Assembly (NCBI GenBank): GCA_965199715.1
Contig: OZ241322.1
Coordinates: 2,272,001-2,336,000 of the forward strand
Source: Vicinamibacteria bacterium
GTDB lineage: Bacteria; Acidobacteriota; Vicinamibacteria; Marinacidobacterales; Marinacidobacteraceae
Length of the DNA: 64,000 nt
Reading direction: 5' to 3'
The notes beneath the pieces are model-generated. The model searched no databases, was not told the DNA's origin, and saw only the letters and a program-made list of their open reading frames with translations. Every line of letters starts with the position of its first letter. The first letter of the stretch is position 1. This document shows positions 9,349 through 28,105 of this stretch, in pieces. The translations under genes were made by a program, and so were the position numbers.

Positions 9349-10592
9349 TGACCCCGGACTTCATCTCCTTTGATGAGACTTGGAGCCGCGTGCGAGCGAT
9401 CCTGTCCGAGGCCGATCTCCCACAGCGCGCCCGCCCCGTGTACCTCGTCCGTGACGCGCACGGGCGCATCCGGATCTCGGCGCCGCTGGCGTTGGAGGAC
9501 GACGGCCCGTGCAACGAGGCGCTGGATGCGTTGGCGGACCGGCTGGATCGGAGTCTCGGGCCGCATTCGGACGGGGCTCGGGGCAGCGTCCTGTATCTTG
9601 ACGATCAGTACCTGAACCTCCTCACCGGGACCCGACGCGAACTGCCGGAACTGCCCGGAGTATTCGCCGAGGAGCGCCTCTTCGTCGGCGAGCATTGGTG
9701 GGCGGTCAACGGCGCGAAGGAGTCCGGCGCCCGACGGTTCACGCTGTATTCGGTCAAGGGCGGCCTCGGATGCAGTACGACGGCCGCAGCCCTCTCCCGC
9801 CATCTGGCCGCGCAGGGCGAACGGGTGCTGGTCATGGATCTCGACCTTGAGTCGCCGGGCCTTGCCGCGGTGCTGGAGCCGGAGCGCCGACCGCGCTTCG
9901 GCGTGACCGACTGGTTCGTCGAGAACCTCGTGGGGCAGGGCGATCACGTGGCGGAGCGGATGCTCGGCTCCCCGGCGTGGGCCGATGCGCTCGGGGGCGA
10001 AGTACGCATCGCGCCGGCCGACGGCGCGACCCCGGGGGAATACCTCGCCAAGGTCGGCCGCGTCTATATGGAGCGTCTCGACTCGCTTTGGCCGGACCGA
10101 CTCGCGGGTCTCGTGGAACGTCTGGAGGCTCAGCTTCAGCCCACGACCGTGCTGATCGAGAGCCGCAGCCGCTTCCACGACATCGCCGCCGCGACCCTCA
10201 CCGATCTCGGGGCGGAAGTCCTGCTGTTCGCGACGGATGCCGAGAGTGTGTGGGCCGATTACGAAATCCTCTTCAAGCACTGGAAGGACAAGGGCTTGGC
10301 CGATGCGATCCGGGATCGGCTGACCTTCGTCTCGGCGCTTACGCCGGAACGCGACCGGGAGGCGTGCCGAAGCCGGTTCCGCTCGCGGACGGCGGAACTG
10401 ATGCGCACGCTCTACGGCGATTCCGGTGCGTTCCCCGAGCCGCTTGAAATCGGCTGGCATCCCGGGCTCGCGGCCGGGGCCTCGCTGCGGACTCTGGACG
10501 CTGAGGCTGTGGCGTCGGCGTACGGGAATTTCTGGAGGCCGCTTGCGGAGCGCCTGCCGCGAGGCGAGTTTGCCGGGGCTCAGGCTCCCTGA
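9348..10592 (+). CDS. ParA/MinD-like 'KGGVGR-motif variant' ATPase with degenerate Walker A
   Basis: N-terminal LVRDAHGRIRI domain, YSVKGGLGCSTTAAAL, VLVMDLDLESPGL, GVTDWFVE, YLAKVGR, LIESRSRFHDIAA. Confidence 0.75.
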   Translation: MTPDFISFDETWSRVRAILSEADLPQRARPVYLVRDAHGRIRISAPLALEDDGPCNEALDALADRLDRSLGPHSDGARGSVLYLDDQYLNLLTGTRRELPELPGVFAEERLFVGEHWWAVNGAKESGARRFTLYSVKGGLGCSTTAAALSRHLAAQGERVLVMDLDLESPGLAAVLEPERRPRFGVTDWFVENLVGQGDHVAERMLGSPAWADALGGEVRIAPADGATPGEYLAKVGRVYMERLDSLWPDRLAGLVERLEAQLQPTTVLIESRSRFHDIAAATLTDLGAEVLLFATDAESVWADYEILFKHWKDKGLADAIRDRLTFVSALTPERDREACRSRFRSRTAELMRTLYGDSGAFPEPLEIGWHPGLAAGASLRTLDAEAVASAYGNFWRPLAERLPRGEFAGAQAP

Positions 10593-10622: not shown

Positions 10623-11123
10623 TCAGGTGTCGTCTGGAGTCGGCGCAGACTCTGAGCGCACCTCGTCAAGCAGCGACTGCGCGAGCTCCAGCGTGCGGTC
10701 CAGCGGCGTGGTCTGAAGGTCGCCCGAGAGCTGCTTGAGCACGACTGGACACCCGGCGGCCGCCAAGCGATTGGCGACGTCCACGATTCGCTTGGGATCG
10801 CCGGTTTCAGGGCTGTCATGACCCAGGCGCGCCACTGAGACGACGGCGAGAAGGGAGCCGAGGTCTTCATCCATAATCTGTGACGTGTAGATGAACAACT
10901 TTCCCCACCGTGAGACCGGGCCCTGACGCGGCTCGAGCCCTCGCGCTAGGGCGGTTGCAACACTGAAGGCCCAGAAATCCACCTTCCTCCGAAAGGGGCG
11001 CTGTTCGACTCTCTCACGCTCCCCTGAGTGCATGCCCACGTAGCCGTTGACTGCGTCCTCGTGCTCTCGCGGCAGCATGAGCGACAGTCCTTGGGCGCGA
11101 AACAGATCTCGAAATTCACTCAC
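10623..11123 (-). CDS. Small Dnd-associated protein (dnd_assoc_4-like)
   Basis: PFRRKVDFWAFSVATAL and KRIVDVANRLAAAGCPVVLKQL resemble the pattern of DNA phosphorothioation-associated protein 4. It lies directly downstream of the DndD-like ATPase, with GAGGAG before the GTG. Confidence 0.55.
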   Translation of the reverse strand: MSEFRDLFRAQGLSLMLPREHEDAVNGYVGMHSGERERVEQRPFRRKVDFWAFSVATALARGLEPRQGPVSRWGKLFIYTSQIMDEDLGSLLAVVSVARLGHDSPETGDPKRIVDVANRLAAAGCPVVLKQLSGDLQTTPLDRTLELAQSLLDEVRSESAPTPDDT

Positions 11124-11135
11124 AGCGGACTCTCC

Positions 11136-13358
11136 TCAGCGCGGCTGCCAGGCCGGGTTCGCCGCCTGCCCGGCACGCTCGCACACCTTGCAGTACTGCC
11201 TTGGACCGCAAGGACACAGGAGCGACACCTTGCGGGCATCGGTCAGGTTGACCACATCTCCCCCGTGGTCCGTGTGTTGCCACTGCGCTGTCAGCGTGTA
11301 TGTGGCTCCGGCGTAGCGTGAAATCAGGTCGACTTCACTTTGGGCTTCCAAGTCGGACCCCGTGAGCAACAGAATGGGCTGGTTAGCCGTCTCGGCAGTG
11401 ATGCGCACCGTGTTGGTCCGGACGGCACCGGACATGAAGTTCAGCATCGAGTCCGCGACCAGGGGCGCGAGAGTCCGGCTGACCTTACACAGGGCCAGCA
11501 CGAACGAGAGCGCGAGAATCCTCCTTGACGCGCCATTGATCTCCGTGGGCGGCATCGATCGGCCTCGGCTGTTGAGCGCGAAGATCTCGTAGTCGCCCTC
11601 ACTCTGCTCCAACCGCGTGAGTCCAACCTGCTCGATCATGTGCATCTTGGCCTTGGGGCGGTCGTCCTCCATGCCGTCGTCGTCCATCACATTGGCGGCC
11701 ATGCGCAGAAACAACCGGTTCATTTCCTTCCCCAGCTCGGCTACCTGATCATCCCGAATGCGTGCTTGGGCATTGCGAATGATCTGGGCGAGGAGCGACG
11801 CCGTTTCCTCCTGCCGCTGCAGGTCACGAGCCTGCGTCTGGCCTCTTTGGGATCGACGGATCACGCCCTCAAGCCTTCCAATCTCCTGGCGCTGCCGGTC
11901 AGCGTTCTCCCTGTCACGGATCAGATCGCGCTCCAAGTTCTCCGATCGGGTCTCCAGCATCTCGATCTGTCCACGCACGGCCTCGATTCCCTGATCCTTG
12001 ATCGTCGAGAGCTTGCTCTCGATGTCTCGCATGGACTGGACGAGGCCGCCGAGTTCATCGTCACGTGCGCTGATCGTGGTTTCGAGGTCTTCCCGGCGCC
12101 GCATCCAGGAATCGCCGTCTCGGTGGGAGTGCAGCGCCCGTGCGGCCTGCAGAACTTGGGTCAGGTAGTCGGCGCGGTCCACCTGAACGCGGGAATCGGC
12201 CAAGACACGCCGAATCTTGTCTCGATGTTCCCCTTGTGCGGTCAAGTCTTGACCGCAAACACACGTGCCCTGATCGAGCAGGCCCTCGACGAACGCAAGA
12301 TGGCGGACTGGAATCGTGCCGTCGTCGTACAGTGGCTGCAGGCAATGGCAGACGTGTGCGATCTCTCGGGAAGCCAGCGCGGCCAGCAGTTCGACGGAGC
12401 CGATCGTGTTGGAGAGGGCTACCGCCGCCTCCCGTCGGTCCGCACGTGCTCGGAGTATGCGTTCCTCGTGCTCCTTTTTCCGGGCGAGAAGCTCGTCGTG
12501 GGCCCCGAGTCGGCTGATGCGGGCCTCGAGTTGGCCCCGCTGCTGCGCCAGATCATCGTCGATGTCGGTCTTCTCCTTTCTGTTCCGCTCCACTCGCTCC
12601 TCCAGCGCCTTGTTCGCCTGTCGGAGGCCATCCAATTCGTCCTGCTTGGCGTCCAGATCGTGGTCTCGCGCCGCCTTGGTCGCTTGCCGGCCCAGATCAT
12701 GTTCGATGGACCGAATTCGTCCTGCGGCTTCCTCGAATACCTCGAGGCCCAAGAGTGAGCGTACGGCGTAGGACGTCTTGGCGATGACGTCTTGTCGCCG
12801 GAGGCTCTTGTTCTCGCTTCCACCCACGAAATCGGCGGCCTCGTCCGCATCCATCACGAAGAAATCGCGCAGCTCCCAAGGCAACAGCTCCCGAATCATG
12901 GAATCGACGCCGTGTTCGTACGGCATCCAGCCGTCTTCCTCCTTTACGAGGAGCTGCGTCGATTCGTTGACCCGGTGGTAGTCCGGGTCTCCCGTCTCGG
13001 TGCCGCTTCGGGCCAGTGTCGTGACGGATCGGTGCAATTCGTATTCGGTCGTCGCCGGACCAGACTCGGGATGGTGGCGGGTCGAACCATCGGTCTCGAA
13101 GAGAATGGAGACACGGGTCTCGACTCCTGCGGCGTCCGGCTCCCACGATGCTGGGTGGAGGGAGAACTCGGCCGGGTTGCCGGGCAACCCCCTCTCTCCG
13201 TACATCCCCCATCGGATCGCTCGCAGCAGAGTGGTCTTTCCGGATCCGTTCTCCGCCCGTACCACCGTAAGGGGTTTGTTCCGGTCAGTGGACGGGAACA
13301 GTCTGAGGCGATCGAAGCACACGAAGTTCGTGATTTCGATTCGACGAATCAGCAGCAT
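11136..13358 (-). CDS. DndD-like SMC/Rad50-type coiled-coil ABC ATPase with CxC zinc hook
   Basis: IEITNFVCF, Walker A AENGSGKTTLL, FFVMDAD (Q-loop region), long coiled coils with central CVCGQ, signature INGASRRILALSF, Walker B LVADS, Cys-rich tail CPC..YCKVC. Confidence 0.8.
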   Translation of the reverse strand: MLLIRRIEITNFVCFDRLRLFPSTDRNKPLTVVRAENGSGKTTLLRAIRWGMYGERGLPGNPAEFSLHPASWEPDAAGVETRVSILFETDGSTRHHPESGPATTEYELHRSVTTLARSGTETGDPDYHRVNESTQLLVKEEDGWMPYEHGVDSMIRELLPWELRDFFVMDADEAADFVGGSENKSLRRQDVIAKTSYAVRSLLGLEVFEEAAGRIRSIEHDLGRQATKAARDHDLDAKQDELDGLRQANKALEERVERNRKEKTDIDDDLAQQRGQLEARISRLGAHDELLARKKEHEERILRARADRREAAVALSNTIGSVELLAALASREIAHVCHCLQPLYDDGTIPVRHLAFVEGLLDQGTCVCGQDLTAQGEHRDKIRRVLADSRVQVDRADYLTQVLQAARALHSHRDGDSWMRRREDLETTISARDDELGGLVQSMRDIESKLSTIKDQGIEAVRGQIEMLETRSENLERDLIRDRENADRQRQEIGRLEGVIRRSQRGQTQARDLQRQEETASLLAQIIRNAQARIRDDQVAELGKEMNRLFLRMAANVMDDDGMEDDRPKAKMHMIEQVGLTRLEQSEGDYEIFALNSRGRSMPPTEINGASRRILALSFVLALCKVSRTLAPLVADSMLNFMSGAVRTNTVRITAETANQPILLLTGSDLEAQSEVDLISRYAGATYTLTAQWQHTDHGGDVVNLTDARKVSLLCPCGPRQYCKVCERAGQAANPAWQPR

Positions 13359-13579
13359 CAGGAACTCTCCGGTGGGTGGGGCCGCTTCACAGCGCTCTCG
13401 ATCAGGGATCGAATTTCCTGGCGAATTCTCGGATGGGCCTTGATCCGATGCTGGTCCTCAAGATCAACGATTTCCATGACGAGCTTTACGACGTCCTCCG
13501 GGTCAAGTTTGTACGAGGGGGCGAGCCGACTCGCCTCTCTTCGGATCTCCGCAAGGAGTCGCTCAAAGTTGCTTACCAT
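13358..13579 (-). CDS. Small helical protein between helicase and CxC ATPase (73 aa)
   Basis: MVSNFERLLAEIRREASRLAPSYKLDPEDVVKLVMEIVDLEDQHRIKAHPRIRQEIRSLIES. Start overlaps the helicase stop; stop overlaps the ATPase ATG (TGATG). Confidence 0.72.
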   Translation of the reverse strand: MVSNFERLLAEIRREASRLAPSYKLDPEDVVKLVMEIVDLEDQHRIKAHPRIRQEIRSLIESAVKRPHPPESS

Positions 13580-15777
13580 GGCCTTCCCTTCGGCGTGGTC
13601 GTGGCCACCCAGTGCTCGTGAGGGCCGCTGAGGAGTGGGGGCCGTGCGCCTCCGAGTGGCCAGTAGGCTTGTGTGAGGCGCTCCAGATCGGCGGCGACCC
13701 CGTTCGGCCCCGCAAGGTTCTCGGCGTACCGTCCGAAGGCTTGGGCTCGGCTCAGTTCGGTTCGGACGATTCCCGCCACGGAGGGGTTTCCGTCGCTTCG
13801 AACCACGGACACCGGCGGCAGCCCGAGGAAATCGTGGACGATCGCTCTCGGCTTCGACGGGTGCATGCGCAGGACCCGGCCTCGCCGCTGTACCCACTCT
13901 CGCTCGACGGTTGACGATGCGACGATGAACGCCTCTCGGACGCTTGGGATATCGACCCCCTCGTCAAGTACGCGCTTGGCGAGAAGCACTTGGATTGCCC
14001 CCTCGGTGAACGAGTCAAGCACCCTCGCCAAGAGTCGAGGCTTCGCTGTCGTGTCCTGCGTGACTTGTGACCACCGAACACCGAGTTCGGTCAACACGCG
14101 CCCGATGTCTGTGAACTGGCTGGGTCGTTTCGCCGAGGCGTAGATGAGCGTGTGCTCAAGTTCGCTCGGCTCCCGGCGCAGCAATACAACCCGCAGCAAA
14201 TCGATCTTCGTTTGCGCGGTCTCGACGATGCGCCGGCGTGCGATGAGGAGCCGTCGCACGGCCTCATCTCCATCGTCGGACGCCATCGCTGCGCCGATGC
14301 GCTGGCTCAGGCGCTCGAACTCCTCAAGCTCGTCTCCGCCCAGAGTACAGGCGTGCACGTAGTACCGGTAAGGCACCAGGCAGAACCCAATCGCTCGGTC
14401 CAAGCCGAACTCGTACGCTGTTTTTCCGAAGAAATCGAAGATGGCCTCGGTCCCGTCGGGGTCGTATTGCCGCTCCGGCGTGGCGGACAGCGCAAGGCGC
14501 CTCTGGAAGAACTCCGGCTTGTTCTGGACGAACGAGTCCGCTCCAAGCGTGTGCGCCTCATCGCCGATGAGCATCGTCTCGACCGGTTCAGGCGCCGACC
14601 GGAGCTTCTGCTCCACCGTCCTCTGGAATCGCGCCGAGCAGAGCAGCCTGTTCGTCGCGACAACTACATGAGTTCCACCTCGCCGGAGGCTCCGGAAGAG
14701 TTGTGTGAGCTGCCTGTCAACGTCGCCGAGGCTCGGCGCGATCGCCTTCATGCCGAACTTCTTCACCTCGTCGCGCCACTGCAACACGAGCGGAACCGAA
14801 GGAGCCGAGATCACGACCAAGAATGCTTGGTGGTTCTTGAGGCGATCCTGGCAGCGGGCGGCGCAGATCAGCGCAGTGAGCGTCTTTCCCGCTCCAGTGG
14901 CCATCGCGATCACGCCGGTCTCGGGAGCTTCACCGCCTTCCCAAGCCTCTACCGCCTCCCCTTGATGAGCATACGGACCCGTCCTCCACTCAAGACCTGA
15001 CGGGATGCGCAGCCGGCGGACCGGGAGTGGCGCTGGTGCGGGAAGGGGATTCGGGGGCCGAATGAGGCGCTCGTAGTCGGCTGGTCTCGGGGCGGTTTCC
15101 GGCGCTGCCCGGATGATGTCCTCGCGCAGGGCGTCCGGTAGGTCCAGAACCCGGTGGATGCCGGCGCTCTCACCTTTCGTCCAGTCGCTCAGCGTCTTCA
15201 GGCCGGTGTGCACCCGTGCGGCGCTGTCAGCCACCCAAGAGACGTCCACGTCAAGGTGCTCGACGCCAGCAGCGACGCCTCGGCCCGTCGCGTTGCCGGA
15301 GCCTCGAGCCAGTACCTGATTGGTGCCGTCGTCAAACAGCCAAAGCTTCGGGTGGTAGTTGGACTCCGGTGTCGGGACGGCGATTCGCAGGCGAAGGCGA
15401 TTCGTGGCGATCATCCAGGAGAGGCAGTCCAGCGCGTGACGTGCGAGGCCGCCGCTCGTGGGTCGGCCGCGCAGGAAGACGTGGCCCACCAGCTCAGCCG
15501 CCTGCGTGTCGCTCATCTGCACTCCGCGCTCGATCGCCGAACGCTCGTCGGGGAACAGCGCCGGAGCGACGGTGAACTCCAACGGCTTGGCGTTCTCTCG
15601 GTTGAGGTAGAGGGCGAGGCCCGGCGCCAGTTGCCCGATCCAACCAGCCGTGAACCATCCGAATGCGCCCTTGACCGATGTCGCGGCGCGGAACCCGGGA
15701 ATGAGCACTTGAGCGGCCACGGGCTCGTCCGGGAGCCTGTAGAGCCTTGGCTCCAGTGTGCGCTCGTCCGAGAGCAT
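13573..15777 (-). CDS. HKD/PLD-nuclease fused to SF2 DEAH helicase (Dnd-associated restriction-enzyme type)
   Basis: GWFT motif, YHPKLWLFDD..RGSGNAT (PLD-like), MATGAGKT, IGDEAH, LSATPER, LDEGVDIP, QRRGRVLR. ATG at 15777 lies 2 nt after the upstream stop. Confidence 0.85.
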   Translation of the reverse strand: MLSDERTLEPRLYRLPDEPVAAQVLIPGFRAATSVKGAFGWFTAGWIGQLAPGLALYLNRENAKPLEFTVAPALFPDERSAIERGVQMSDTQAAELVGHVFLRGRPTSGGLARHALDCLSWMIATNRLRLRIAVPTPESNYHPKLWLFDDGTNQVLARGSGNATGRGVAAGVEHLDVDVSWVADSAARVHTGLKTLSDWTKGESAGIHRVLDLPDALREDIIRAAPETAPRPADYERLIRPPNPLPAPAPLPVRRLRIPSGLEWRTGPYAHQGEAVEAWEGGEAPETGVIAMATGAGKTLTALICAARCQDRLKNHQAFLVVISAPSVPLVLQWRDEVKKFGMKAIAPSLGDVDRQLTQLFRSLRRGGTHVVVATNRLLCSARFQRTVEQKLRSAPEPVETMLIGDEAHTLGADSFVQNKPEFFQRRLALSATPERQYDPDGTEAIFDFFGKTAYEFGLDRAIGFCLVPYRYYVHACTLGGDELEEFERLSQRIGAAMASDDGDEAVRRLLIARRRIVETAQTKIDLLRVVLLRREPSELEHTLIYASAKRPSQFTDIGRVLTELGVRWSQVTQDTTAKPRLLARVLDSFTEGAIQVLLAKRVLDEGVDIPSVREAFIVASSTVEREWVQRRGRVLRMHPSKPRAIVHDFLGLPPVSVVRSDGNPSVAGIVRTELSRAQAFGRYAENLAGPNGVAADLERLTQAYWPLGGARPPLLSGPHEHWVATTTPKGRPW

Positions 15778-15779
15778 CG

Positions 15780-17729
15780 CTAGGACGGTCGGCGCCGGCG
15801 GAGCATGCGCTGCAAGAGGGCGTCCGCATCGCCCACCTGATTCGCTTCCGTCGATGCGTCGCCGGAGCTCAGTTTCGCGGAACCGGGGCCGAGGATTGTC
15901 ACTCTGGCCCGGTCGCCCGGTTGAAGGCCGAGGCGCCGCAACGGCCCTGAGACGTAGCCGAGCGTTGCGCCGGTCGGGGAAGCCAGCTTCCATCGCAACG
16001 ACATTTCCCGACAGCCAATGGGACTCTCCAACGAGACCGCCACGCCGGAATCGGGCTCGCATCCGAGCGCCTTGGCGATCTCCCCGGGAACCCCGGTCAC
16101 GCTGTGGCCCTCGAAGTAGCGGCCATCCACGACGAAGCTCCAGTAGGGTGCGCCCTCGTCGTCATGTCCGTGCACTACGTCGTCCAACGGCCTTAGCTGG
16201 ACGGAGGAGGCGCTGGCCAGACTGATCATCCCGTCACGCACCGAGAAGCGAGCAGTCTTCATGTATGCCTCAACGCTCGTGGCCTGAACGCCGAATTTGG
16301 CGGGAATCTCCGCCAGTAGCCTCTTGGTCGTCGTGACGCCTCCGTCCTCGTCGATTCGCTGGATGATCTCGCCGACGATGCCGTCGTATTCATCGTCGAT
16401 CCACTCCTTGAGTCCCCAACGTTCCTTGTCGGCTCGCACGACGCTCGGAACGCTGGAGAGCGTGGCACCGACTCGAAGGGGATCAGCGATCCCGGAAGCG
16501 GCGGCGATTTCGGCCTTCGTGGCGGGTCTTCCGATGGAGATCAGAGCTGCTTTGGCCCGTGCTTTGGCTGTATCCCGACGCGCTAGCAGCCCACGGATAC
16601 GGTGCAGTCGATTGTGTCGGAGCAGCCAGTCCCAGAATCGCTCTCGGTAGTCCTCCGGGACATGCTGCATCAGAGCAGCCTCGACGATAAGGCCCACATC
16701 GTCTGCGAGCTCACCAACGCCATTCTGGAACTCCGAGAGGAACTGCCGACCGCGCTCATCAACGAAGACACCGGCTTCCAGCGAGTACCGCATGGCGTCC
16801 AGCAACGCGCTTTGGAATAGGCGGGTAGTGATCTGGTCTTCATCCGGCGAGATGTCGTCGAGGACTCGCCGCATGTCATTCTCAGACAAGATGGGATCGA
16901 GTTGGTCGTGGATCGTCGAGGCGACGACCCCCATCTCCGCACCAAGAGCGACACGAAGTTTCCGATGGATCTTTGCTTCCAACTGGCGAACGCGCTCCCG
17001 GGTCACGCCGAGTCGCTCGCCGAGCGCCTCCAGCGTGTCGCGCTTCTCACCGAGAAGTCGCCCCTCCAGAATCAGGCGATTCCGCTCGTCGAGCGCTTCC
17101 ACCGTACGGCCCAGCCGCCGGATGATGAGTACCGGGAGGCTGGGAGTCCCGGCAGCGAGGTCACGAACCTCAACCTCTTGGAGAGCCGCTTTGACTTCCA
17201 TCCGATCCGCCAGCACAACAAGTTCGGAGCACAGCGCCTCAAGGAGCGTCTGGGGGCCGCGCAGGTCGGCCGCAGTGGCGAGAAGCGTGCTGAGCGTGGG
17301 TGCGATCTCGCCCCAGCGTTGAGCGCTCTTCGGCAGCGCCTCTACTCGATCGGCTGACGTCACGGCGGCCTGAACGTCTTCCATCGCCTGCATGCGATCG
17401 GTCAGGAACGTCTCGAGCGCAGACAGGAGATCCCGGAGTGATGTCCATCCGAAACCCCTCATCCGCAGCAGCTCCTGCACCGTGAGTGCGCCGTCGCCCT
17501 GCGCAAATTCCTTCTGCCGACAGCAGTTGGCCGTTCGCACCTTCAGGACGAGCCAGCGCACAGTCGATCGCTCGAGGCCGGGGGGCCAAGCGATGGCGTG
17601 GAGTTCGGTCCGGGTGCCCTTGCGAACTGTGCGCAGCGCTGCGGAAATGGCTTGCAGATGGAGCCGTGCGGCCTCGGCTGAAGGGACCACTGTTCCCAGC
17701 GACCCGTCAGGCCGCGACATTCGGCTCAT
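15780..17729 (-). CDS. Multi-HTH DNA-binding protein: RNAP alpha-CTD-like HhH, sigma70 region-4-like HTH, winged helices
   Basis: LTVQELLRMRGFGWTSLRDL (alphaCTD-like), LDERNRLILEGRLLGEKRDTLEALGERLGVTRERVRQLEAK (sigma4), ATKAEIAAAS..RWGLKEW. No sigma region 2. Start at 17729 or 17720. Confidence 0.72.
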   Translation of the reverse strand: MSRMSRPDGSLGTVVPSAEAARLHLQAISAALRTVRKGTRTELHAIAWPPGLERSTVRWLVLKVRTANCCRQKEFAQGDGALTVQELLRMRGFGWTSLRDLLSALETFLTDRMQAMEDVQAAVTSADRVEALPKSAQRWGEIAPTLSTLLATAADLRGPQTLLEALCSELVVLADRMEVKAALQEVEVRDLAAGTPSLPVLIIRRLGRTVEALDERNRLILEGRLLGEKRDTLEALGERLGVTRERVRQLEAKIHRKLRVALGAEMGVVASTIHDQLDPILSENDMRRVLDDISPDEDQITTRLFQSALLDAMRYSLEAGVFVDERGRQFLSEFQNGVGELADDVGLIVEAALMQHVPEDYRERFWDWLLRHNRLHRIRGLLARRDTAKARAKAALISIGRPATKAEIAAASGIADPLRVGATLSSVPSVVRADKERWGLKEWIDDEYDGIVGEIIQRIDEDGGVTTTKRLLAEIPAKFGVQATSVEAYMKTARFSVRDGMISLASASSVQLRPLDDVVHGHDDEGAPYWSFVVDGRYFEGHSVTGVPGEIAKALGCEPDSGVAVSLESPIGCREMSLRWKLASPTGATLGYVSGPLRRLGLQPGDRARVTILGPGSAKLSSGDASTEANQVGDADALLQRMLRRRRPS

Positions 17730-19224
17730 CACCCGGCGGGTGCGTCGCAGCACTGCGGATCAATCGGTGTCCCCTCAGAGAGAGACCCTTTTCCTGAAGT
17801 CGCCGGATCCATCCATCGCGAGTGCCGATTCGAGGTGTGTCGCTGTAGAGGCCCTTCGACTCCTCGATCCGGGTCAGACGGGCGAACTTCGGGCGCAACG
17901 GATGCTCGGGCAGAACGAACGCTTCCTTCCGGTGGAGAATCGGGGGGTTCCGGGACGCTGCGTAACTTCTTTCCCGTACATTGAAGCTCTGGAGGTGCAC
18001 CGTCAGGGAATCGCGGAGGGCCGGGTGAGGATCGGACTCGAAGTCCGGGTATGAGAGGTAGGACACCAAGGGTTCGTCGACGTGAAGCTTGACCACGTTG
18101 GCTCCGGCTACATGGCCGATGTACCTTCTGGCGCAGCCTTCGTAGAGCCTGAGCGCGAGGGGGAGCCCCTCCAGCGCACTCTTGTGGACGTAGATGGCGG
18201 TCGGCATGCGCTTCCCGACCGAGGACTGTCGGGCTGCCCTCGCAATCCGAGTCGGATCTCCGATGGCCAGGAGCGCCCGGTCCGCCTCCTCGCACGCTCG
18301 CCGATATGTGGAGAACAGGCTTCTGAGGTCCCGCTGTAGGACGGTAGGCAGACGGCCCATGGGGACCCGCCCGTCAAAGCGGCTCAGCGCGAGGAAGAGC
18401 AACAATTCCTGAGTTCTCGCAGCGATGATGAGTCTCCACTGGCGGCGGTCGTGCGTGCGCTCAATGAGTCGAAATGCTCGGCGCACGCTCCCGAAGCGCT
18501 CGGCGATCCGTTGAGGGTCACTCAGCTCATCTTCCCGTGGGGCGCGAGCGTGGCGGTGGAAGAAGGCGATCAGGGGCTCCAAGAGCTCCCGGTGTTCCAG
18601 AACGATCGACACGGCGGTCGTGCGGCTCCGAACCGTGGTCCCCTCGAATCGGCGCGCCAGGAAGGCTGCCCGGTCGGTGCTGTCCCGGAAGACGTAGAAG
18701 ACCCCCGGCGCTGCGGCGACGGCACGTTTGCCGAGCACGGCTTCGACCCAGTCCGCCAGCTCGCGCTGCTCGTAGAATTTCTGGAAGGTTCCGATTGACG
18801 TGACGCACCCATCCGCATGATGTCCGGTTGGGACAAGCCCCGTGGACTGCGAGGCGAGACGCGCCGAAACGATGAGTGCCTTTCGGGCGAAAGACCACGC
18901 CTTGCGAAGGCACTCCGCCCTCTCTATTGGATCCTCGATGACGTTCACGACGTATCCGAGGTTCACAATCTGGGCGGGCGCGCGGGAGTCAGGGCCTTGA
19001 TGCGCCGGGTCCCACCCCCAGCTCTTGATGCCCCGACGGCGCAAATTTCGGACATCGTCACCGAGTCCGCAGCCGTAGTCGAACACACTCGTTGACGGTG
19101 TGATGAGTCCGTCCGACAAGGCAGCGGCGACCGGCCGGGAAAGGTCCAGGCGAGCGATGGCGGTGCGACGGCGATTTCGGCTGAGCGCCGCCGCGCCATC
19201 CCGACACTCTGCGTAGCGCTTCAG
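17707..19224 (-). CDS. DNA phosphorothioation-associated putative methyltransferase
   Basis: RTAIARLDLSRPV, VFDYGCGLGDDV, WGWDP, VNLGYVVNVIEDPIER, TFQKFYEQREL, VSYLSYPDFESDPHPAL, NPPILHRKE: the hallmark pattern of this family (TIGR04096 from memory). Start uncertain (CTG ~19224). Confidence 0.85.
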   Translation of the reverse strand: MKRYAECRDGAAALSRNRRRTAIARLDLSRPVAAALSDGLITPSTSVFDYGCGLGDDVRNLRRRGIKSWGWDPAHQGPDSRAPAQIVNLGYVVNVIEDPIERAECLRKAWSFARKALIVSARLASQSTGLVPTGHHADGCVTSIGTFQKFYEQRELADWVEAVLGKRAVAAAPGVFYVFRDSTDRAAFLARRFEGTTVRSRTTAVSIVLEHRELLEPLIAFFHRHARAPREDELSDPQRIAERFGSVRRAFRLIERTHDRRQWRLIIAARTQELLLFLALSRFDGRVPMGRLPTVLQRDLRSLFSTYRRACEEADRALLAIGDPTRIARAARQSSVGKRMPTAIYVHKSALEGLPLALRLYEGCARRYIGHVAGANVVKLHVDEPLVSYLSYPDFESDPHPALRDSLTVHLQSFNVRERSYAASRNPPILHRKEAFVLPEHPLRPKFARLTRIEESKGLYSDTPRIGTRDGWIRRLQEKGLSLRGHRLIRSAATHPPGDEPNVAA

Positions 19225-20102
19225 GAGGCCCTCTCTACGGCGTCTTCCATGATTTGGTCCAGATCGTCGTCGCGCAGGACACCCAATTCGAGAGCGCCCT
19301 GCAGCGCCGTCGTCCTTCTGCACAGGCGGCGAAGACCCTTGGAGGAACGCAGTTTCGTTTTCTCCGTCTTGTCTAGGAAACAGGCCAAGGCGCGCAGGAA
19401 GGAACCGCGGATGTTGTCGGACCCAAAGGTTGAGTTGCGGAACACGATCCGGTCCACGAACTTCTCCCAATAGTCCTGACTGAGGCGCACGACGGCGCGA
19501 ATCCGTGCGGCGCACTCTTCATCGCCACGACTCGCTTGCGCAACGATGCGCTCGCGCCACCACGCCCTTGCGAAAGGACAGTCCACGAAAACCGACCGAT
19601 TGCCGCGCACCTCGGGCAGCCCCCCCAAGCGTCGGAGGACAGTACGCACACACGAATCCATCAACTTGGGTGCCTGTTGGGATGAGTCGGCCAACGCGGC
19701 GTCGATGCGCTCGGCGCCGCCGGAGAGATTCCCGCCATTGCACGCCAAGTAGGCGGACTCGATCCGCCCCTCCCGGATGTGAGTCAGCGTGAGATTGGCC
19801 CAGAAAGCAGACCTTGAAGCGGCGGCCGGGGTCAGCGCGGACCACATCAAGAACAGTGCGTGCTCGGTGTCACTCGGTGGGTCCTTGTACTCGTTCTCTG
19901 TCAATGGATCCGCCGCTACTGCCGCGCGAGTGGCGCCCATCCGGGGGATCTCGGTGAAATAATCCAAGAACTTCGTCGACTCGCACGCAGCCTCCAAGAA
20001 TTCTCGCTGGGCATCCGATCCCTTCTCTCGGAGGAGTGTTCTCCGGGTCTTCGTGTAGACGGCGTCATCCAAGACCTCGAAGTCCGCCCCAGAGCCGCTC
20101 AT
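19221..20102 (-). CDS. Uncharacterised helical protein, DUF6339-like
   Basis: LTPAAASRSAFWANLTLTH and DCPFARAWW resemble the LTP-x-A-x-W-x-LTH / RLWW pattern of DUF6339. ATGA overlap with the upstream gene. Confidence 0.55.
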   Translation of the reverse strand: MSGSGADFEVLDDAVYTKTRRTLLREKGSDAQREFLEAACESTKFLDYFTEIPRMGATRAAVAADPLTENEYKDPPSDTEHALFLMWSALTPAAASRSAFWANLTLTHIREGRIESAYLACNGGNLSGGAERIDAALADSSQQAPKLMDSCVRTVLRRLGGLPEVRGNRSVFVDCPFARAWWRERIVAQASRGDEECAARIRAVVRLSQDYWEKFVDRIVFRNSTFGSDNIRGSFLRALACFLDKTEKTKLRSSKGLRRLCRRTTALQGALELGVLRDDDLDQIMEDAVERAS

Positions 20103-22968: not shown

Positions 22969-24120
22969 TCAGGCGGCTAGAGCGGGTGCCACGGCGGCTG
23001 CGAGGGCCGCGACCGCCTCGCTGACGTCCTCGTCCGTCGTGAAACGTCCGAGACCGATGCGGACGCCGGTCGAGGCTGCAGCCCGGTCAAGACCCAGCGC
23101 GAGCAACACGCGGGATGGCTCGAAGGTCGCCGATGCGCACGCTGATCCCGACGAGATGGCGATCCGTTCGGACACGGCGCGGATGACCTCGTCGGCATTC
23201 AGCCCCGGGAAGCCGACGTTCAGGTTTCCGGCTACGCGCTCACGCTCGTGGCCGAACAGTCGCAGGTCTGGTCTAACCGCACGGAGTTCGTTGTAGAGGC
23301 GTTTCGTCAGCGACGCGATCCGGGCCCGATCTTCCTCCTGCCGCACTAGGGCCACCTCGCACGCCCTTCCGAATCCGGCGATCAGGGCTGTGGGCACGGT
23401 GCCGCCCCGGCGGCTCCGTTCCTGGGAGCCGCCGGTGATGACCGGTCGGAGTTCGACCCCCGAGCGCACGTACAGGGCCCCCACCCCCTTGGGTCCGTAA
23501 ACCTTGTGGCTCGAGATGCTGAGGAGATCCACGCCCCACTCATCGACATCAATGGTCAGCCGACCGGCCGCCTGTGTCGCATCCGTGTGGAAGAGCGCGC
23601 CGCAGGCATGACAGAGCTCGGCGATCTCCGGGATCGGCTGCAGGACTCCGATTTCGTTGTTCACGGCCATCACCGAGACGATCAGCGTGCGCTCGTCCAG
23701 AACTGACTCAAGGCGCCCAAGATCAGCAAGCCCGTCCTTCCCGACGGGGAGAATCGCAATCTCATGGCCGTCGCTACCCAGATCCCGCACGGTCTCAAGG
23801 ACCGCCGCGTGCTCGGTGGCCAGCGTCACAATGCGATTTCGGCCACCGTTGCGTTTTCGGTTGGCGACGCCACGCAGCGCGAGGTTGCAGCTCTCCGTCG
23901 CCCCGGACGTGAACACGATCTCATCGTCGTCGGCGTTCAGAAGGCTTGCGACCTGCGCCCTGCCGAGTCGGACCGCCTGGGATGCGTTCCAGCCGAACCG
24001 ATGGCCGTGCGAATGCGGATTGCCGAACTCCTCTGCGAGGTAGGGGCACATCGCCTCCCGAACTTCAGGATCCATCGGAGTCGTCGCCTGGTAGTCCAGA
24101 TAGACGGGCCTGTGACTCAT
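22969..24120 (-). CDS. Group I cysteine desulfurase (DndA/IscS-like)
   Basis: YLDYQATTP, FGNPHS, FTSGATES, EHAAV, DATQ, PLP-lysine SSHKVYGPKGVG, catalytic SSGSACAS. ATG at 24120 overlaps the upstream stop (ATGA). Confidence 0.93.
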   Translation of the reverse strand: MSHRPVYLDYQATTPMDPEVREAMCPYLAEEFGNPHSHGHRFGWNASQAVRLGRAQVASLLNADDDEIVFTSGATESCNLALRGVANRKRNGGRNRIVTLATEHAAVLETVRDLGSDGHEIAILPVGKDGLADLGRLESVLDERTLIVSVMAVNNEIGVLQPIPEIAELCHACGALFHTDATQAAGRLTIDVDEWGVDLLSISSHKVYGPKGVGALYVRSGVELRPVITGGSQERSRRGGTVPTALIAGFGRACEVALVRQEEDRARIASLTKRLYNELRAVRPDLRLFGHERERVAGNLNVGFPGLNADEVIRAVSERIAISSGSACASATFEPSRVLLALGLDRAAASTGVRIGLGRFTTDEDVSEAVAALAAAVAPALAA

Positions 24121-25607
24121 TCGGTGCAGTCGCAGGGGAGCATCGTCTCGGCGAGTGCGCCCAGCTCGCGGCCGTTGGCCACGTCGTCGTAGGAAAAGTC
24201 GTTGTTGCCGAAGAATCCGATGTGCTTCACCTTGCTTCGCGTAGCTCGCTTCTCTGCCTCGAGATCGCGCCCGTACTTCGCCTCCATTCGCTTCCACCAC
24301 GCCAAGTCACACGGCGTGCCCGAAAATGCACCGTTCCCACCTGCTCCGTTGGTCATGTGGGCGTGAACGGTCCTCAGATTCACCGCGCCCTTGAGGAAGC
24401 AGTACACGCAGTTGGACAGGCCAGAGTCATGTGGCAGCTTCAGATCCCACGTTTGGCCCTCCCAGAAGCGATTCACGTCCTCCCTGGCGACCGCCATGTC
24501 GGCGAGCGGCATATAGATGTGCTCGCCCTCATAGCCTGAAGCGGAGTCGTTGCGGCTGCTCACTCGCTGCACCCGGTGCGGCTCATCGTGGCGCAGGCCG
24601 ATGAACGCTACGTACTGGGCGCCGCCTTTGCCGAACCGAGCCTTGCCGCCGAAGGTCTTGCCCTTGAGATGTTCGTTCTCGAACGGCGTCCAATCGGGCC
24701 AGTAGTCCTCGAATCGTTGCTCAGGTCGAAAGTGAGGCCTCTCCCAAGCGAACCGACGCTTCTCAAGGAAGATTTCCCTGGGCACGCCGCCCTGGTTCTT
24801 CAGGTGCCGCCGGTAGGCCGCGTCCGGGTTCATGCGTGGCCTGCGTCCAAAGTGACCCATGCGCGGAATTCCGGGCTTCCCGGAGAACCAATCCCGAAGA
24901 AAGGCGCGAGTCACTTCCAGCTTGAGGTGTCGCGTGCAGATTCGCTGGAACTGATTCGGGACGTAGCCTGACCACGACAGTAGTTCCTCAAACACCTCGC
25001 CTTGCCAGTGGAACCCATTCGGGTTGGACGCCGACCGGGGGTTCTCGTTCACAAGGCGGTAAGTCGGAAGACGTGTCCATTCCCCCTGCCGGGCGTCCTC
25101 GTAGGTTTGGAATTCGATCTGAAAGAACGGGATTCCGTAGCGGTGCGCGGCGCGGATGCAGTCCCCTACGAACTCGTAAGTGCCCGGGTGCTCCGCGGCC
25201 GTGTTGTTGAAGACGATCACGTCGCCCCGGTCCTGCCGCAGGAGTCCGTTGTGGAGAAGCGTGAAGAGAAGCATCCCGCTGGAACGGCCGCCGGAAAACT
25301 TCACGACGTGCGGCAGCGAGCTGTGCTTTCTGGACCGGTACCGGAAGAGATGCGCACGGTTCGGGTCGTGCGTGGCAGGGGAGCGGGCGATCCTCGTTGA
25401 GGGCGACAGCGACGGGATGCCGCAAACCTCAAAGCTCGGGGCCGATTGTGGGCCCGGTCGGGTGGCAGCCGGTTCGCTGGTCACCGGCGGCTGCGCCGAG
25501 GTGATCGGAAGCTCCCATGCCGTGTTCGCACCGATGACGGTTGAACCCTGAGAGCCGTCCGAACGTCGGCTCGCCTGCGACGCGGTGACCATGCCCAATT
25601 GTGGCAT
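24117..25607 (-). CDS. PAPS-reductase / adenine-nucleotide alpha-hydrolase family protein, phage NinC-like subtype
   Basis: PP-loop VVKFSGGRSSGM, FNNTAAEHPGTYEFV, RICTRHLK, FIGLRHDEPHRV, YMPL, SNCVYCFLKG, C-terminal PCDC. The first ~85 aa are low-complexity, so the start is uncertain. Confidence 0.8.
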   Translation of the reverse strand: MPQLGMVTASQASRRSDGSQGSTVIGANTAWELPITSAQPPVTSEPAATRPGPQSAPSFEVCGIPSLSPSTRIARSPATHDPNRAHLFRYRSRKHSSLPHVVKFSGGRSSGMLLFTLLHNGLLRQDRGDVIVFNNTAAEHPGTYEFVGDCIRAAHRYGIPFFQIEFQTYEDARQGEWTRLPTYRLVNENPRSASNPNGFHWQGEVFEELLSWSGYVPNQFQRICTRHLKLEVTRAFLRDWFSGKPGIPRMGHFGRRPRMNPDAAYRRHLKNQGGVPREIFLEKRRFAWERPHFRPEQRFEDYWPDWTPFENEHLKGKTFGGKARFGKGGAQYVAFIGLRHDEPHRVQRVSSRNDSASGYEGEHIYMPLADMAVAREDVNRFWEGQTWDLKLPHDSGLSNCVYCFLKGAVNLRTVHAHMTNGAGGNGAFSGTPCDLAWWKRMEAKYGRDLEAEKRATRSKVKHIGFFGNNDFSYDDVANGRELGALAETMLPCDCTE

Positions 25608-25652: not shown

Positions 25653-28055
25653 CTACGGCGCCGGTTCCAGCATCAGCCGGTGCTCGGTCACCGATTCCAC
25701 GCGCCCCCGGGTGTACGCCAGCGGGAAGTACTGGTTGCGCACCCAGAGGTCGAACAGGTCGCGGTAGTGGGGGTTCATCGGATCGCCTGACTGGCCGGGG
25801 GTCGAGGTCGCGATCGAGTTGTCCCAGTCGGACGGGTCGAGGATGACGCGGAAGCTGCCGCCGGAGCGCTGGTTGTCGCCGCCGCCGGTGTTGTTCACGG
25901 TGGACTCGTAGCCGCCCCGGGGGTAGGGGCCGACCTCGAGCAACTGCCGGGTCTCCTCGTCCACCGCGTCCGCCATGTAGTGCGTGATGTGGACGTGCTT
26001 CATGTTTTCCTGCCCGTAGCGCCAGTTCGCCATGTCGGTTCCGAGCCGCTCCTCGACGTCCTGGACGCCGTCGGCGAGCGCCTTGACCAGCAGCGCGTCC
26101 CGGGCGTTGATGGGATCGTTCCCGAACCGGCCGTCGGGGGCCATCAGGTGGTCGAGCATCCGCTTCTTGTTCACCCGAGAGACGTAATCCCGCGCCGCTT
26201 CCGGGATGTACAGCTCGCCGACCGCTTCCGACACGCGCCGCTCGAAGTGCAGGTAGATCGTGGCCGCGACCGAATCCATTCCCATCACGAAGTCCCAATC
26301 CTTGAGCAGCGTCAGCGCCGGGCTCTCGGGCGGCTCGGCGAGCAGCAGCAGCGGCACGAGGTTGCGCGCCACGACGCTGAGCTCGTCGTGCTGGTAGGCC
26401 ATCATGTCCTGGACGGTCATGCGCCGCCCGTCGCGCATCAGCTCGTCCACCCGCAGGCCCCGCATCTCGTCGCCCCACGTGAAGTGGAGCGCCTCGGGGT
26501 GCGGATAGTCCGACTGGACCGCCGGCGCCATCAGGTTGTTCGCGGTGCCCCAGAAGCCTTTCTCCGGGTTCTTCACCGAGGGCAGCGCCTTGATCGGGAG
26601 CAGGCCCGACCACTCGTAGCGCCCGTCGCCGGGAACCGGCACGAGGCCGCTCCAGTTCGCGTTGCGGATCGGCGACACGCCCACCGCCTGGTAGCCGATG
26701 TTGCCCTTGACGTCGCCCCAGATCATGTTCTCGGCCGGGATGCCGCTGTAGGCGCACGCCTCGACGAACTCCTCCCAGGTGCGCGCCTGGTCCATGCGCA
26801 GGCTGGCGAGATAGGGAGAGTTGCCGATCTCGAGCCAGGCGGCGTTGAGCGCGTACGCCTTGTGGTTCTCGCCGTCCTCGTGGAGCACCGGCCCGTGGCG
26901 GGTGTACTTGAGCGTCGCGACGTGGTCGGCCTGTCCCTTCACCCGGATCGTTTCCGTCCGGATCGTCATCGCTTCCCACTCGCCGAGGTAGCGGTACTCG
27001 TGGGGGTTCTCCGGGTTCGTGTCATAGACCATCAGGTCCTCGTTGTCCTGCCCGAAGACGGTCAGGCCCCACCCGCCGTATTCGTTGTGCCCGATGGAGA
27101 GGCCGGGCAGCACCGGCTCGCCGCCCCCGATCACGTTCCATCCCGGCCCCTTGATGTGGACGAAGTACCGGAGCGACGGCGCCACGATGGTGCGATGCGG
27201 GTCGTTGACGATCAGCGGGAGTCCGGTCCAGGTGCGTTCGCCGCCGACGACCCAGTTGTTGCTGCCGATGTGCTCGCCGAGATCCACGAGCCGCAGCTCG
27301 GAGGGGAACTCCTCGAGCAGCGCCAGCCGCTCGGCGTCCCGGTTGCGGTACTCGGCGGCGATCTGGTCCGGGCTGAAGGTGACCGGTCCCCGGAAGGCCC
27401 GGTAGACGTCGAGGATCTCGGGCTTCAGCAGCGAGCCGTCGATCGCCGGATCCAGCGCGAGCTGCGGCGTCCCCGGCCGATACCAGTCCACGCCCATCAT
27501 CGCCTCGGGGCCGACCGCCGCCACCGCCATCCCGATGTTGAGCTCGCTCGTGACGTTCGAGAGCAGCCCCTGATGCCGGGAGATGACGTCCTTTTCGGTC
27601 CACGGTTCGGGAAGGATCCCGAGCAGCCGGAACTCCAGCGGCAGCGAGTCCGGATCCTGCCGCGCCCGCTCCACGGCGGCGTTGATCCCCCGCACGAACG
27701 CCGGGATGATCTTGTCGCCCCTCTCGTGGTACCAGCGCATCTCCTCGCCCATGTCCTTGCGGAACTGGTGGAGCCTCGTCCCGATGTCGCGCTGGAGCTC
27801 GCCCGGGCCGAGGATCTCGGCGACCGTGCCCGTGGCCTGCCGGCGCCACATCTCGAACTGGAAGAGCCGGTTCTCCGCCGCTCGGTAGCCCTGCGCGAAG
27901 AAGAGGTCGTCCTCGGTCTCCGCGTAGATGTGGTCCACTCCCCAGCGATCCACGAGCACCTCCACCGCCCGCTCCAGCCCGGCGACGGCGCGGGTCTCGT
28001 CCTGGGCGAGCCCCGGAGCGGCGAGAAGGATCAGCGCGGCGAGGAATCGGGTCAT
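25653..28055 (-). CDS. Penicillin acylase family (Ntn-hydrolase), secreted
   Basis: Signal peptide, VDRWGVDHIYA, FAQGY, autocleavage GSNNWVV, NDPH, TRHGPV, TANN, PGQSGDP. Confidence 0.92.
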   Translation of the reverse strand: MTRFLAALILLAAPGLAQDETRAVAGLERAVEVLVDRWGVDHIYAETEDDLFFAQGYRAAENRLFQFEMWRRQATGTVAEILGPGELQRDIGTRLHQFRKDMGEEMRWYHERGDKIIPAFVRGINAAVERARQDPDSLPLEFRLLGILPEPWTEKDVISRHQGLLSNVTSELNIGMAVAAVGPEAMMGVDWYRPGTPQLALDPAIDGSLLKPEILDVYRAFRGPVTFSPDQIAAEYRNRDAERLALLEEFPSELRLVDLGEHIGSNNWVVGGERTWTGLPLIVNDPHRTIVAPSLRYFVHIKGPGWNVIGGGEPVLPGLSIGHNEYGGWGLTVFGQDNEDLMVYDTNPENPHEYRYLGEWEAMTIRTETIRVKGQADHVATLKYTRHGPVLHEDGENHKAYALNAAWLEIGNSPYLASLRMDQARTWEEFVEACAYSGIPAENMIWGDVKGNIGYQAVGVSPIRNANWSGLVPVPGDGRYEWSGLLPIKALPSVKNPEKGFWGTANNLMAPAVQSDYPHPEALHFTWGDEMRGLRVDELMRDGRRMTVQDMMAYQHDELSVVARNLVPLLLLAEPPESPALTLLKDWDFVMGMDSVAATIYLHFERRVSEAVGELYIPEAARDYVSRVNKKRMLDHLMAPDGRFGNDPINARDALLVKALADGVQDVEERLGTDMANWRYGQENMKHVHITHYMADAVDEETRQLLEVGPYPRGGYESTVNNTGGGDNQRSGGSFRVILDPSDWDNSIATSTPGQSGDPMNPHYRDLFDLWVRNQYFPLAYTRGRVESVTEHRLMLEPAP

Positions 28056-28105
28056 GGGACGCTCCTTCGGGGACTCGATCATACCGGCTGATAATTTCCA
28101 CGCCG

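Follow-up and report, generated by a model that had tools for sequence, protein, structure and literature searches.

A NinC-like PAPS-reductase-fold enzyme coupled to a cysteine desulfurase, a candidate DNA sulfur-insertion module in a GHKL ATPase cassette of a Vicinamibacteria bacterium

A 64,000-nucleotide stretch of the chromosome of a Vicinamibacteria bacterium (GenBank assembly GCA_965199715.1, contig OZ241322.1, positions 2,272,001 to 2,336,000 of the forward strand; hereafter the window) carries a gene, here called X, for a NinC-like PP-loop enzyme with a predicted phosphoadenosine phosphosulfate (PAPS) reductase fold. X is directly followed by a gene for a DndA/SspA-type cysteine desulfurase and by three genes for a GHKL ATPase and two further proteins that resemble the PDC-M33 cassette, and the X-desulfurase pair stands where two related cassettes carry a DNA methylase. 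On balance, we favour the reading that X and the desulfurase constitute an ATP-dependent module that would insert sulfur into DNA, probably as phosphorothioate, and would provide a GHKL-based defence system with its means of self-marking. X most likely sulfur-marks the cell's own DNA, because it is located where related islands carry a DNA methylase.

The X gene and its partner desulfurase

A sequence-only reading of this DNA had quoted a set of motifs in X and an ATGA overlap with the desulfurase gene, all of which are present in the translation and in the DNA. The motifs are FSGGRSSG (residues 104-111), NTAAEH (135-140), RICTRHLK (222-229), GLRHDE (337-342), SNCVYCFLKG (398-407) and a C-terminal LPCDCTE, in which CDC occupies residues 492-494. 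At the junction, which reads tgcaccgaATGAgtcac, the X stop codon TGA (24119-24117) overlaps the desulfurase ATG (24120-24118). The DndC motifs that the same reading had cited for comparison were recovered as well, as GYSGGKDST, RFRWCT and RFGCWVC, in four DndC sequences. The true start of X is uncertain: homologues have about 445 amino acids and their alignment begins at about residue 56, residues 1-42 are disordered in the AlphaFold model, and the two candidate starts are the ATG at 25607 and an in-frame GTG at 25484.

The partner is a class-V aminotransferase (Pfam Aminotran_5, 1.3e-82) that matches the PADLOC models SspA (3.5e-143) and DndA (6.3e-143) with no preference between the two. The IscS, NifS and DndA models of NCBIfam were all matched, each under its equivalog cut-off. 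The coordinates of these two genes and of the other genes of the island are collected in Table 1.

Table 1. Genes of the X island in the window (positions of the window; aa, amino acids; ORF, open reading frame; PLP, pyridoxal phosphate; HTH, helix-turn-helix; SF2, superfamily 2)
Feature	Position	Strand	Remarks
X, NinC-like PP-loop / PAPS-reductase-fold enzyme (fold predicted)	24117..25607	-	496 aa ORF, conserved core from about residue 56
DndA/SspA-type PLP cysteine desulfurase	22969..24120	-	383 aa, ATGA overlap with X
GHKL (Bergerat-fold) ATPase, PDC-M33A-like, 656 aa	20992..22962	-	PADLOC PDC-M33A 1.7e-34
PDC-M33B-like protein, 291 aa	20099..20974	-	PADLOC PDC-M33B 2.8e-5
DUF6339 protein at the PDC-M33C position, 293 aa	19221..20102	-	Pfam DUF6339 8.4e-7, above cut-off
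TIGR04096 'DNA phosphorothioation-associated putative methyltransferase'	17707..19515	-	5.6e-167, 556 bits, cut-off 150
657-aa protein with sigma-70 region-4 HTH, PbeB position	15780..17753	-	always directly upstream of PbeA in related loci
PbeA SF2 helicase	13573..16062	-	PADLOC PbeA 3.7e-150; Pfam ResIII, DEAD, Helicase_C
PbeC, DndD-related CxC-type ABC ATPase	11136..13358	-	PADLOC PbeC 8.2e-40; CVC motif in coiled-coil region
166-aa protein, PbeD (DndE-cognate) position	10623..11123	-	next to PbeC also in L009 and L021

Conservation and predicted fold of the X family

When 50 family members with identities as low as 35% were aligned, five cysteines of X proved invariant, namely C224 of the RxCT motif, C400 and C403 of NCxxC, and C492 and C494 of the C-terminal CxC. 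G128, D129, T136, E139, R339, D341 and E342 are invariant as well, and the PP-loop residues S105, G107, R108 and S110 are at least 90% conserved. With such conservation, the motifs are not chance occurrences. A word-indexed search found 1029 relatives at E ≤ 0.001 among 8000 candidates scored, and when 50%-identity representatives were searched exhaustively, 1122 reached E ≤ 0.001, of which 138 also reached E ≤ 1e-30. The best 120 of the 1029 share 56-71% identity with X and are unnamed or 'hypothetical', with no precomputed Pfam domain.

X itself matches no Pfam family at E ≤ 0.01, PAPS_reduct (PF01507) included, and two distant family members reach 20-21 bits on PAPS_reduct against a cut-off of 22.5. 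Its sole NCBIfam match is PRK13795.1-4, at 15.5 bits against a cut-off of 1086. PADLOC returned a weak partial match to SspD (9e-8, 30 bits, residues 327-406 only) and a marginal one to BrxP (2.4e-3), and PHROG 424, the phage 'PAPS reductase' family, was matched at 1.1e-26. PDB sequence searches with X alone or with a 21-sequence profile gave no relevant match.

The AlphaFold model of X has a predicted local distance difference test score (pLDDT) of 88 and a predicted template modelling score of 0.86. In VIA-align comparisons of the model, PAPS and adenosine phosphosulfate (APS) reductases rank at the top (7rge, 6vpu, 2goy, 4bwv and 7lhr; Z 10.2-10.7 over 181-192 residues, root mean square deviation 3.6-4.1), and further PP-loop enzymes come next, among them the [4Fe-4S] thiolases NcsA (Z 9.1) and TtuA (Z 8.3). 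A Foldseek search of the PDB with the model returned no match at E ≤ 0.001, the best being 0.024, and a search of predicted viral structures returned phage PAPS reductases at E 1.8e-8, better than any solved structure. As modelled, X has a PAPS-reductase-like fold, and it belongs to a large unannotated family.

Relationship to NinC, SspD, DndC and CysH

We compared the X family with four DndC and four SspD proteins from genomes of the same phylum, two CysH, lambda NinC, which is annotated 'phosphoadenosine phosphosulfate reductase', and a Microcystis phage protein, Mae-JY30 'NinC-like'. In profile comparisons with hhalign, Mae-JY30 'NinC-like' was matched at 99.9% (E 6e-33, 221 columns) and lambda NinC at 99.5% (E 4.8e-23, 97 columns), followed by SspD at 98.7% (E 3e-16, 175 columns) and DndC at 92.6% (E 4e-7, N-terminal half only). 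The cysteine and PP-loop motifs of X map one to one onto those of DndC and onto those of SspD. Against the DndC model TIGR03183 (cut-off 290 bits), X gave no match at E ≤ 0.01, whereas bona fide DndC proteins of the same phylum score 460-625 bits on it; true SspD proteins score 365-441 bits on the PADLOC SspD model (PDLC02782).

In a maximum-likelihood tree of 32 rows, built by a quick search in which the program flagged long branches, all X-type rows fall in one clade, with a support of 98 in the Shimodaira-Hasegawa-like approximate likelihood ratio test (SH-aLRT). Its sister group is a grade of phage NinC-like rows (support 80-86), and the clades of DndC (SH-aLRT 98), SspD (99) and CysH do not include it. 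The sequence-only reading had called X a phage NinC-type enzyme and had set beforehand, as a test, whether it nests within DndC or CysH; it does not, and stands in a clade of its own beside the phage rows. The kinship with NinC is borne out by the hhalign matches, which beat those to SspD and DndC, and by PHROG 424, and the label 'NinC-type' therefore holds on the profile comparisons and the tree. The word 'phage' does not hold for the gene itself, which is not phage-borne and sits in a chromosomal defence island.

A tblastn search of 50,697 phage records with X matched 48 of them, at 25-34% identity, and among the 30 matches listed, several genes are annotated NinC, NinC-like or PAPS reductase. 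A scan of viral contigs with X-family patterns found only distant relatives, at 28-31% identity; as far as these patterns and this collection go, therefore, phages do not carry the X family itself. No plasmid match was found at 1e-10. We rejected a phage or prophage origin of the window gene, which is located in the chromosomal island. Compared with the phage NinC and NinC-like proteins, X has in common SGGR(T/S)S, R/x-CT..LK, G(L/I)RxDE, GNCxxC(F/I)xK and a C-terminal cysteine pair. However, X is about 150 residues longer than the phage NinC-like proteins, with an insert of about 90 residues (approximately 240-330) and an N-terminal hairpin, and its C-terminal tail is CxC instead of CxxxC. 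In addition, X is encoded on the chromosome, in linkage with a desulfurase and a GHKL cassette, whereas the phage NinC-like genes examined have no adjacent desulfurase. In the literature searched, which did not extend to supplementary tables, we found no function for NinC and nothing tying NinC to sulfur.

A sulfate-assimilation reductase of the CysH type, placed beside an IscS for Fe-S assembly, would share the PAPS-reductase-like fold predicted for X and would suit a desulfurase that scores highest on IscS models. Nevertheless, X does not match PAPS_reduct, is separate from CysH in the tree, has no counterpart of the ECG(L/I)H tail that both CysH rows carry, and sits in a low-GC (guanine plus cytosine) island of defence genes; it was also not found in the three same-genus genomes searched and was found in 1 of 400 other genomes of the phylum. 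We rejected such a housekeeping role, which is hardly credible, on the tree, the missing tail, the island location and the patchy occurrence.

Linkage of X, the desulfurase and the GHKL genes

A scan of genome contigs with the single X protein gave one locus only. In all, 28 related loci were collected, and ten proteins of the window island were mapped onto them by tblastn; loci were merged where their X genes shared 98% identity or more, leaving 22 distinct lineages, the window counted. In 19 lineages, the DNA extends at least 1.1 kb beyond the 3' end of X, and in 17 of these the gene directly following X is of the DndA type; of 21 informative lineages, 20 have an M33A-like gene alongside. 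The adjacency of X and a desulfurase, whose rarity would have spoken against the sequence-only reading, is thus the rule. The usual order is X, DndA, M33A, M33B and DUF6339, and overlaps of 1-4 nucleotides are frequent between successive genes. Four lineages (L021-L024) have the order M33A, M33B, DUF6339 and X; DndA follows X in L021 and L022, and the contigs of L023 and L024 end at or just after X. In the literature searched, which excluded supplementary files, no description was found of X, of a cassette of PAPS reductase, desulfurase and GHKL protein, of DUF6339, of PDC-M33 or of TIGR04096.

Several loci show local peculiarities. A GmrSD_N/DUF262 gene (L015:12499-14181) is inserted within the cassette, between the desulfurase and M33A genes. 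In L059 (G397:C7), the DUF6339 gene is apparently a short remnant (14401-14487), and a gene for a large phage-tail-like protein lies nearby. The X proteins of L010, L016, L019 and L027 are 50-57% identical, and downstream of them lies a gene for a 1276-aa DEAD helicase with a DUF559 (Vsr-like) domain. A lone X paralogue in L058 (G484:C11, 9248-10576, minus strand) is found near genes for a type IA topoisomerase, KilA-N, DUF2857 and DUF7831, in surroundings reminiscent of a mobile element, and its place in the tree is with the methylase-fused forms described below. A weak X-like match (L052, G405:C133, 239-847; 32% identity, E 3e-13) with an in-frame TGA, in a genome of the same family, may be a broken or distant copy.

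Replacement of the DNA methylase

A search of 400 other genomes of the same phylum with the M33A profile, in which weak matches may be missed, found two more carriers, G258 and G349, both without X. Their loci run in the order C5 DNA methylase, PDC-M33A, PDC-M33B, PDC-M33C (a DUF6339 protein, 1e-39 to 1e-42 on the Pfam model) and Vsr, and the comparison with canonical PDC-M33 is made with these two loci only. The window M33A aligns with the canonical M33A at 99.8% in hhalign; the third gene of the trio aligns more weakly with canonical M33C, at 84%, and the two share Pfam DUF6339. Among 12 window proteins scanned with Pfam, neither a PF00145 C5 methylase nor Vsr was found. Because the G258 and G349 cassettes carry a C5 methylase at this position, X together with DndA stands in the place of the DNA methylase.

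In three family members, the X domain is located behind a full or partial C5 methylase domain (PF00145), namely P0183 (3.9e-70), P0181 and P0165. A separate search for fused forms of at least 869 aa found none, which is weak evidence. The swap between X and a methylase matches the pattern reported for bacteriophage exclusion (BREX) type 4, in which the PglX methylase is replaced by the PAPS-reductase protein BrxP and phosphorothioate is made, as described in the parts of PMC12914056 on which we draw throughout.

The GHKL trio

In the M33A family, the Bergerat signature is invariant, including E38, N42, D120-N121-G122-x-G124 and the lid glycines G147, G150 and G152. Profile matches of M33A in the PDB are weak and point to GHKL proteins only (Hsp90, MORC3, MutL and TopoVI-B). 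The model of M33B (pLDDT 84) consists of beta-sandwich domains and a helical C-terminus, and no enzyme fold was recognised in a structure search with it (best Z 7.5). The DUF6339 protein has a conserved arginine-rich core, in which the invariant residues are mostly arginines; it gave no match to the PADLOC M33C model. PDB profile searches with M33B and DUF6339 were uninformative, and look-ups of both in the ESM Atlas returned only 'hypothetical protein' clusters or scores <0.9. The trio may scan DNA for the modifier or may be the effector.

The defence island and its phosphorothioate-related genes

X lies in an accessory, chromosomal defence island. The GC content is 0.61-0.66 in 2-kb bins between 10001 and 26000 and 0.68-0.77 in the bins on either side, and X was found in 2 of 400 further genomes from the phylum to which G421 belongs. 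No tRNA and no convincing flanking direct repeats were found in the window, so no integration mechanism can be proposed. The DUF6339 and M33B genes overlap by 4 nucleotides (20099-20102), and the stop of the 657-aa gene at 15780 coincides with the probable start of PbeA; such overlaps suggest that a single long transcript with translational coupling runs from X to the gene at the PbeD position. The PbeA start is placed near 15780 because homologues align from about residue 75, and the real start of the TIGR04096 gene is probably 3' of 19221, because the family match begins at residue 114.

The downstream genes resemble in part the CxC/Pbe systems, in which, according to the parts of PMC10853773 used here, PbeA is an HKD nuclease-helicase, PbeC is a CxC ABC ATPase sister to DndD, and PbeD is a DndE cognate, and which pair with phosphorothioate genes or cytosine methylases. 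Apart from its PADLOC match, the window PbeA scores 3.2e-94 on TIGR04095, under the 600-bit cut-off, and PbeC scores 8.8e-19 on the DndD model TIGR03185, also under cut-off. The PbeB position holds the 657-aa HTH protein instead of the small disordered protein of the PbeABCD definition, and the 166-aa protein at the PbeD position matched no family in the NCBIfam, Pfam and PADLOC scans. The PbeA module is found with the cassette in 7 of 22 lineages, many contigs ending too early to tell. Elsewhere, DUF262/GmrSD_N proteins occur in four lineages (L001, L008, L015 and L022) and DndB in one (L006). HNH nucleases occur in three (L001, L006 and L017), and their N-terminal domain resembles the sulfur-binding domain of ScoMcrA (5zmm, E 5e-10). 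The residues of the sulfur pocket in ScoMcrA are H116/R117 and Y164/P165 (PMC6224610, in part), and the HNH proteins carry H-K and F-P at these positions. The genome, which is 93% complete, holds no DndC and no PAPS_reduct gene over cut-off. The link to sulfur transfer onto nucleic acid, which the sequence-only reading had drawn from the desulfurase, is strengthened by the gene context described here. That reading had not noticed the five-gene cassette to which X and DndA belong, nor that the pair takes the place of a C5 DNA methylase in the PDC-M33 candidate system.

A possible, more tentative reading of the cassette is that all five proteins form one modification machine like DndACDE, in which the trio scans or clamps DNA and picks the sites for X, and restriction is left to variable neighbours such as the PbeA module, DUF262 and HNH proteins; it differs from the favoured reading only in the role of the trio. 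Such a machine would agree with the lack of any recognised nuclease fold or motif in the trio, with the beta-sandwich and helical build modelled for M33B, with the arginines of DUF6339 and with the retention of the trio beside X in L057, which has no desulfurase. In addition, the phosphorothioate systems described so far require an NTPase as well as the PAPS-reductase enzyme (PMC12914056), and the scanning core of DndD and DndE pairs with phosphorothioate genes or cytosine methylases (PMC10853773). However, the C-terminal half of M33A (about 300-656) could hold an effector domain, several loci have no other restriction gene in the DNA fetched (L008 and L015 apart from the DUF262 protein), and PADLOC lists M33ABC as a candidate defence system.

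Two genes at the ends of the island deserve mention. A gene for a KGGVGR-motif AAA ATPase (9273-10592, plus strand; NCBIfam 2.2e-41, PADLOC PDC-M28B 3.9e-100) lies at the end distal to X and is a second candidate defence gene. A penicillin amidase gene (25653-28082, minus strand; Pfam 9.4e-188) lies 45 bp upstream of X. The methylase-type M33 cassette of G258, a genome of the same class, likewise adjoins a penicillin amidase gene (L065:2191-5178), and the vicinity of this gene may be a shared insertion hotspot.

Proposed mechanism

In the mechanism that we propose, the desulfurase would take sulfur off cysteine as a persulfide, which the C-terminal CxC tail of X probably takes up. X would bind ATP at its PP-loop SGGRSS and adenylate an oxygen of the DNA, and sulfur brought via the invariant cysteines of X would then replace adenosine monophosphate on the DNA. 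The RxCT and NCxxC motifs are the probable site of a [4Fe-4S] cluster, by comparison with DndC and APS reductase. TdpC reportedly acts via an adenylated intermediate, the same mechanism as that proposed here. The target would most likely be a non-bridging backbone oxygen, giving phosphorothioate, because the characterised DNA-acting PAPS-reductase relatives DndC, SspD, BrxP and TdpC act in this way. X and the desulfurase would thus mark self DNA for the GHKL-ATPase defence cassette of M33A, M33B and DUF6339/M33C, a task that would fall to a C5 cytosine methylase with Vsr in canonical PDC-M33; the window cassette is additionally joined by the PbeA/CxC-ABC/PbeD-type restriction module and the TIGR04096 protein. 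The motifs, the modelled fold, the kinship, the linkage of the genes and the module swap are direct results of the analysis. For the substrate, the product, the Fe-S cluster and the sulfur relay, we argue from homology with DndC, SspD and APS reductase, and we likewise infer ATP use and the role given to the trio.

Several of the observations above bear on whether the mark would fall on the backbone or on a base. In the manner of the PP-loop tRNA thiolases TtcA, TtuA and NcsA, X could thiolate a base of DNA, perhaps at the C2 oxygen of a pyrimidine, after being given a flipped-out base; the position of X and DndA at the C5 cytosine methylase site of PDC-M33 cassettes, the fusions to full or partial C5 methylase domains and the structural nearness of the [4Fe-4S] base thiolases NcsA and TtuA would all suit such an activity. 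Nonetheless, the closest folds to the X model are PAPS/APS reductases and not the TtcA/TtuA group, the nearest sequence families after NinC, SspD and DndC, are both backbone enzymes, and the HNH sulfur-binding-domain genes, DndB and TIGR04096 in the vicinity point to phosphorothioate. Thiolated bases are not known as a natural enzymatic modification of DNA. CxC/Pbe systems pair with base methylases too (PMC10853773), whereas the DNA modifications listed in the consulted parts of PMC12914056 include no thiolated base. Base thiolation seems to us unlikely. A broader form of it, with about the same slim chance, is that the NinC-like family, lambda NinC included, are DNA sulfurtransferases, of which the present branch thiolates a DNA base and a GHKL ATPase complex reads the mark; if this is true, the mark would be the first thio-base made enzymatically in DNA.

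A target other than DNA appears very unlikely. X and DndA could modify a tRNA, another RNA or a nucleotide, for example to yield a thio-nucleotide signal or cofactor for the cassette, given that PP-loop enzymes thiolate tRNAs and build cofactors (LarE and ThiI reach Z 8.6 and 8.1 against X), that no DNA-binding domain was identified in X, and that one lineage has X without any partner gene. This is countered by the X domains fused to DNA C5 methylase domains, by the replacement of a DNA methylase by X inside a conserved operon, by relatives among phage DNA-metabolism genes (in the lambda nin region and next to a primase) and by readers of DNA phosphorothioate among the neighbours.

Several points weigh against the favoured reading of a phosphorothioate-writing, self-marking module. 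X fails both TIGR03183 and PAPS_reduct, and its function is therefore transferred over a long distance; the putative Fe-S site, too, rests on motif homology. Replacement of, and fusion to, a base-flipping C5 methylase would fit a base mark equally. The CxC/Pbe and DUF262 proteins are not specific to phosphorothioate, since they also accompany methylation or modified bases (PMC10853773), and where an HNH nuclease with a sulfur-binding domain adjoins a phosphorothioate writer, self-cleavage would have to be avoided in some way. Finally, the adjacent desulfurase is missing from L057 (genome G484), where X and the GHKL trio are kept, and from the group of L010, L016, L019 and L027, which is also without the trio, and the second X paralogue of G484 is solitary, with a topoisomerase and a KilA-N gene next to it.

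Comparison with known systems

Four phosphorothioate-writing systems are established, namely Dnd, Ssp, Tdp and BREX type 4 (PMC12914056). In common with Dnd, the X system has a PP-loop enzyme with RxCT and CxxC cysteines and a dedicated desulfurase, and its island contains a DndD-related ATPase (PbeC) and a small gene at the PbeD position. However, X has no TIGR03183 match, resembles the DndC profile in its N-terminal half only and forms a separate clade, and the core cassette lacks DndB, DndD and DndE. In the case of Ssp, SspD is the nearest characterised family to X and also ends in a cysteine pair (a C-terminal CxxC), and the desulfurase scores equally on SspA and DndA; nevertheless, X lies outside the SspD clade, SspB and SspC are missing, and the partner ATPase is of the GHKL type instead of the P-loop type. 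BREX type 4 likewise has a PAPS-reductase-type enzyme in place of the methylase of a defence system (PMC12914056), but the match of X to BrxP is marginal only, and BrxC, BrxZ, BrxL and a DUF4007 fusion are lacking. TdpC is described as a single-enzyme phosphorothioate writer (PMC12914056). With PDC-M33, the window cassette shares M33A-like, M33B-like and DUF6339/M33C-like genes in the same order, although the PADLOC matches are distant and X with DndA is found here instead of the C5 methylase and Vsr of the two canonical loci.

Significance

If the favoured reading is true, X would be an added phosphorothioate writer from a different clade of PAPS reductases, with a GHKL instead of a P-loop ATPase as partner, and the cassette would be a clear natural case of a defence system that swaps methylation for sulfur marking. 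Lambda NinC has been known for decades without an assigned role, and the reading of X offers a first concrete, testable function for NinC-like proteins. Such proteins are common in phages, as the 48 matched phage records indicate, and phages may use them to sulfur-mark or otherwise alter their DNA against host defences.

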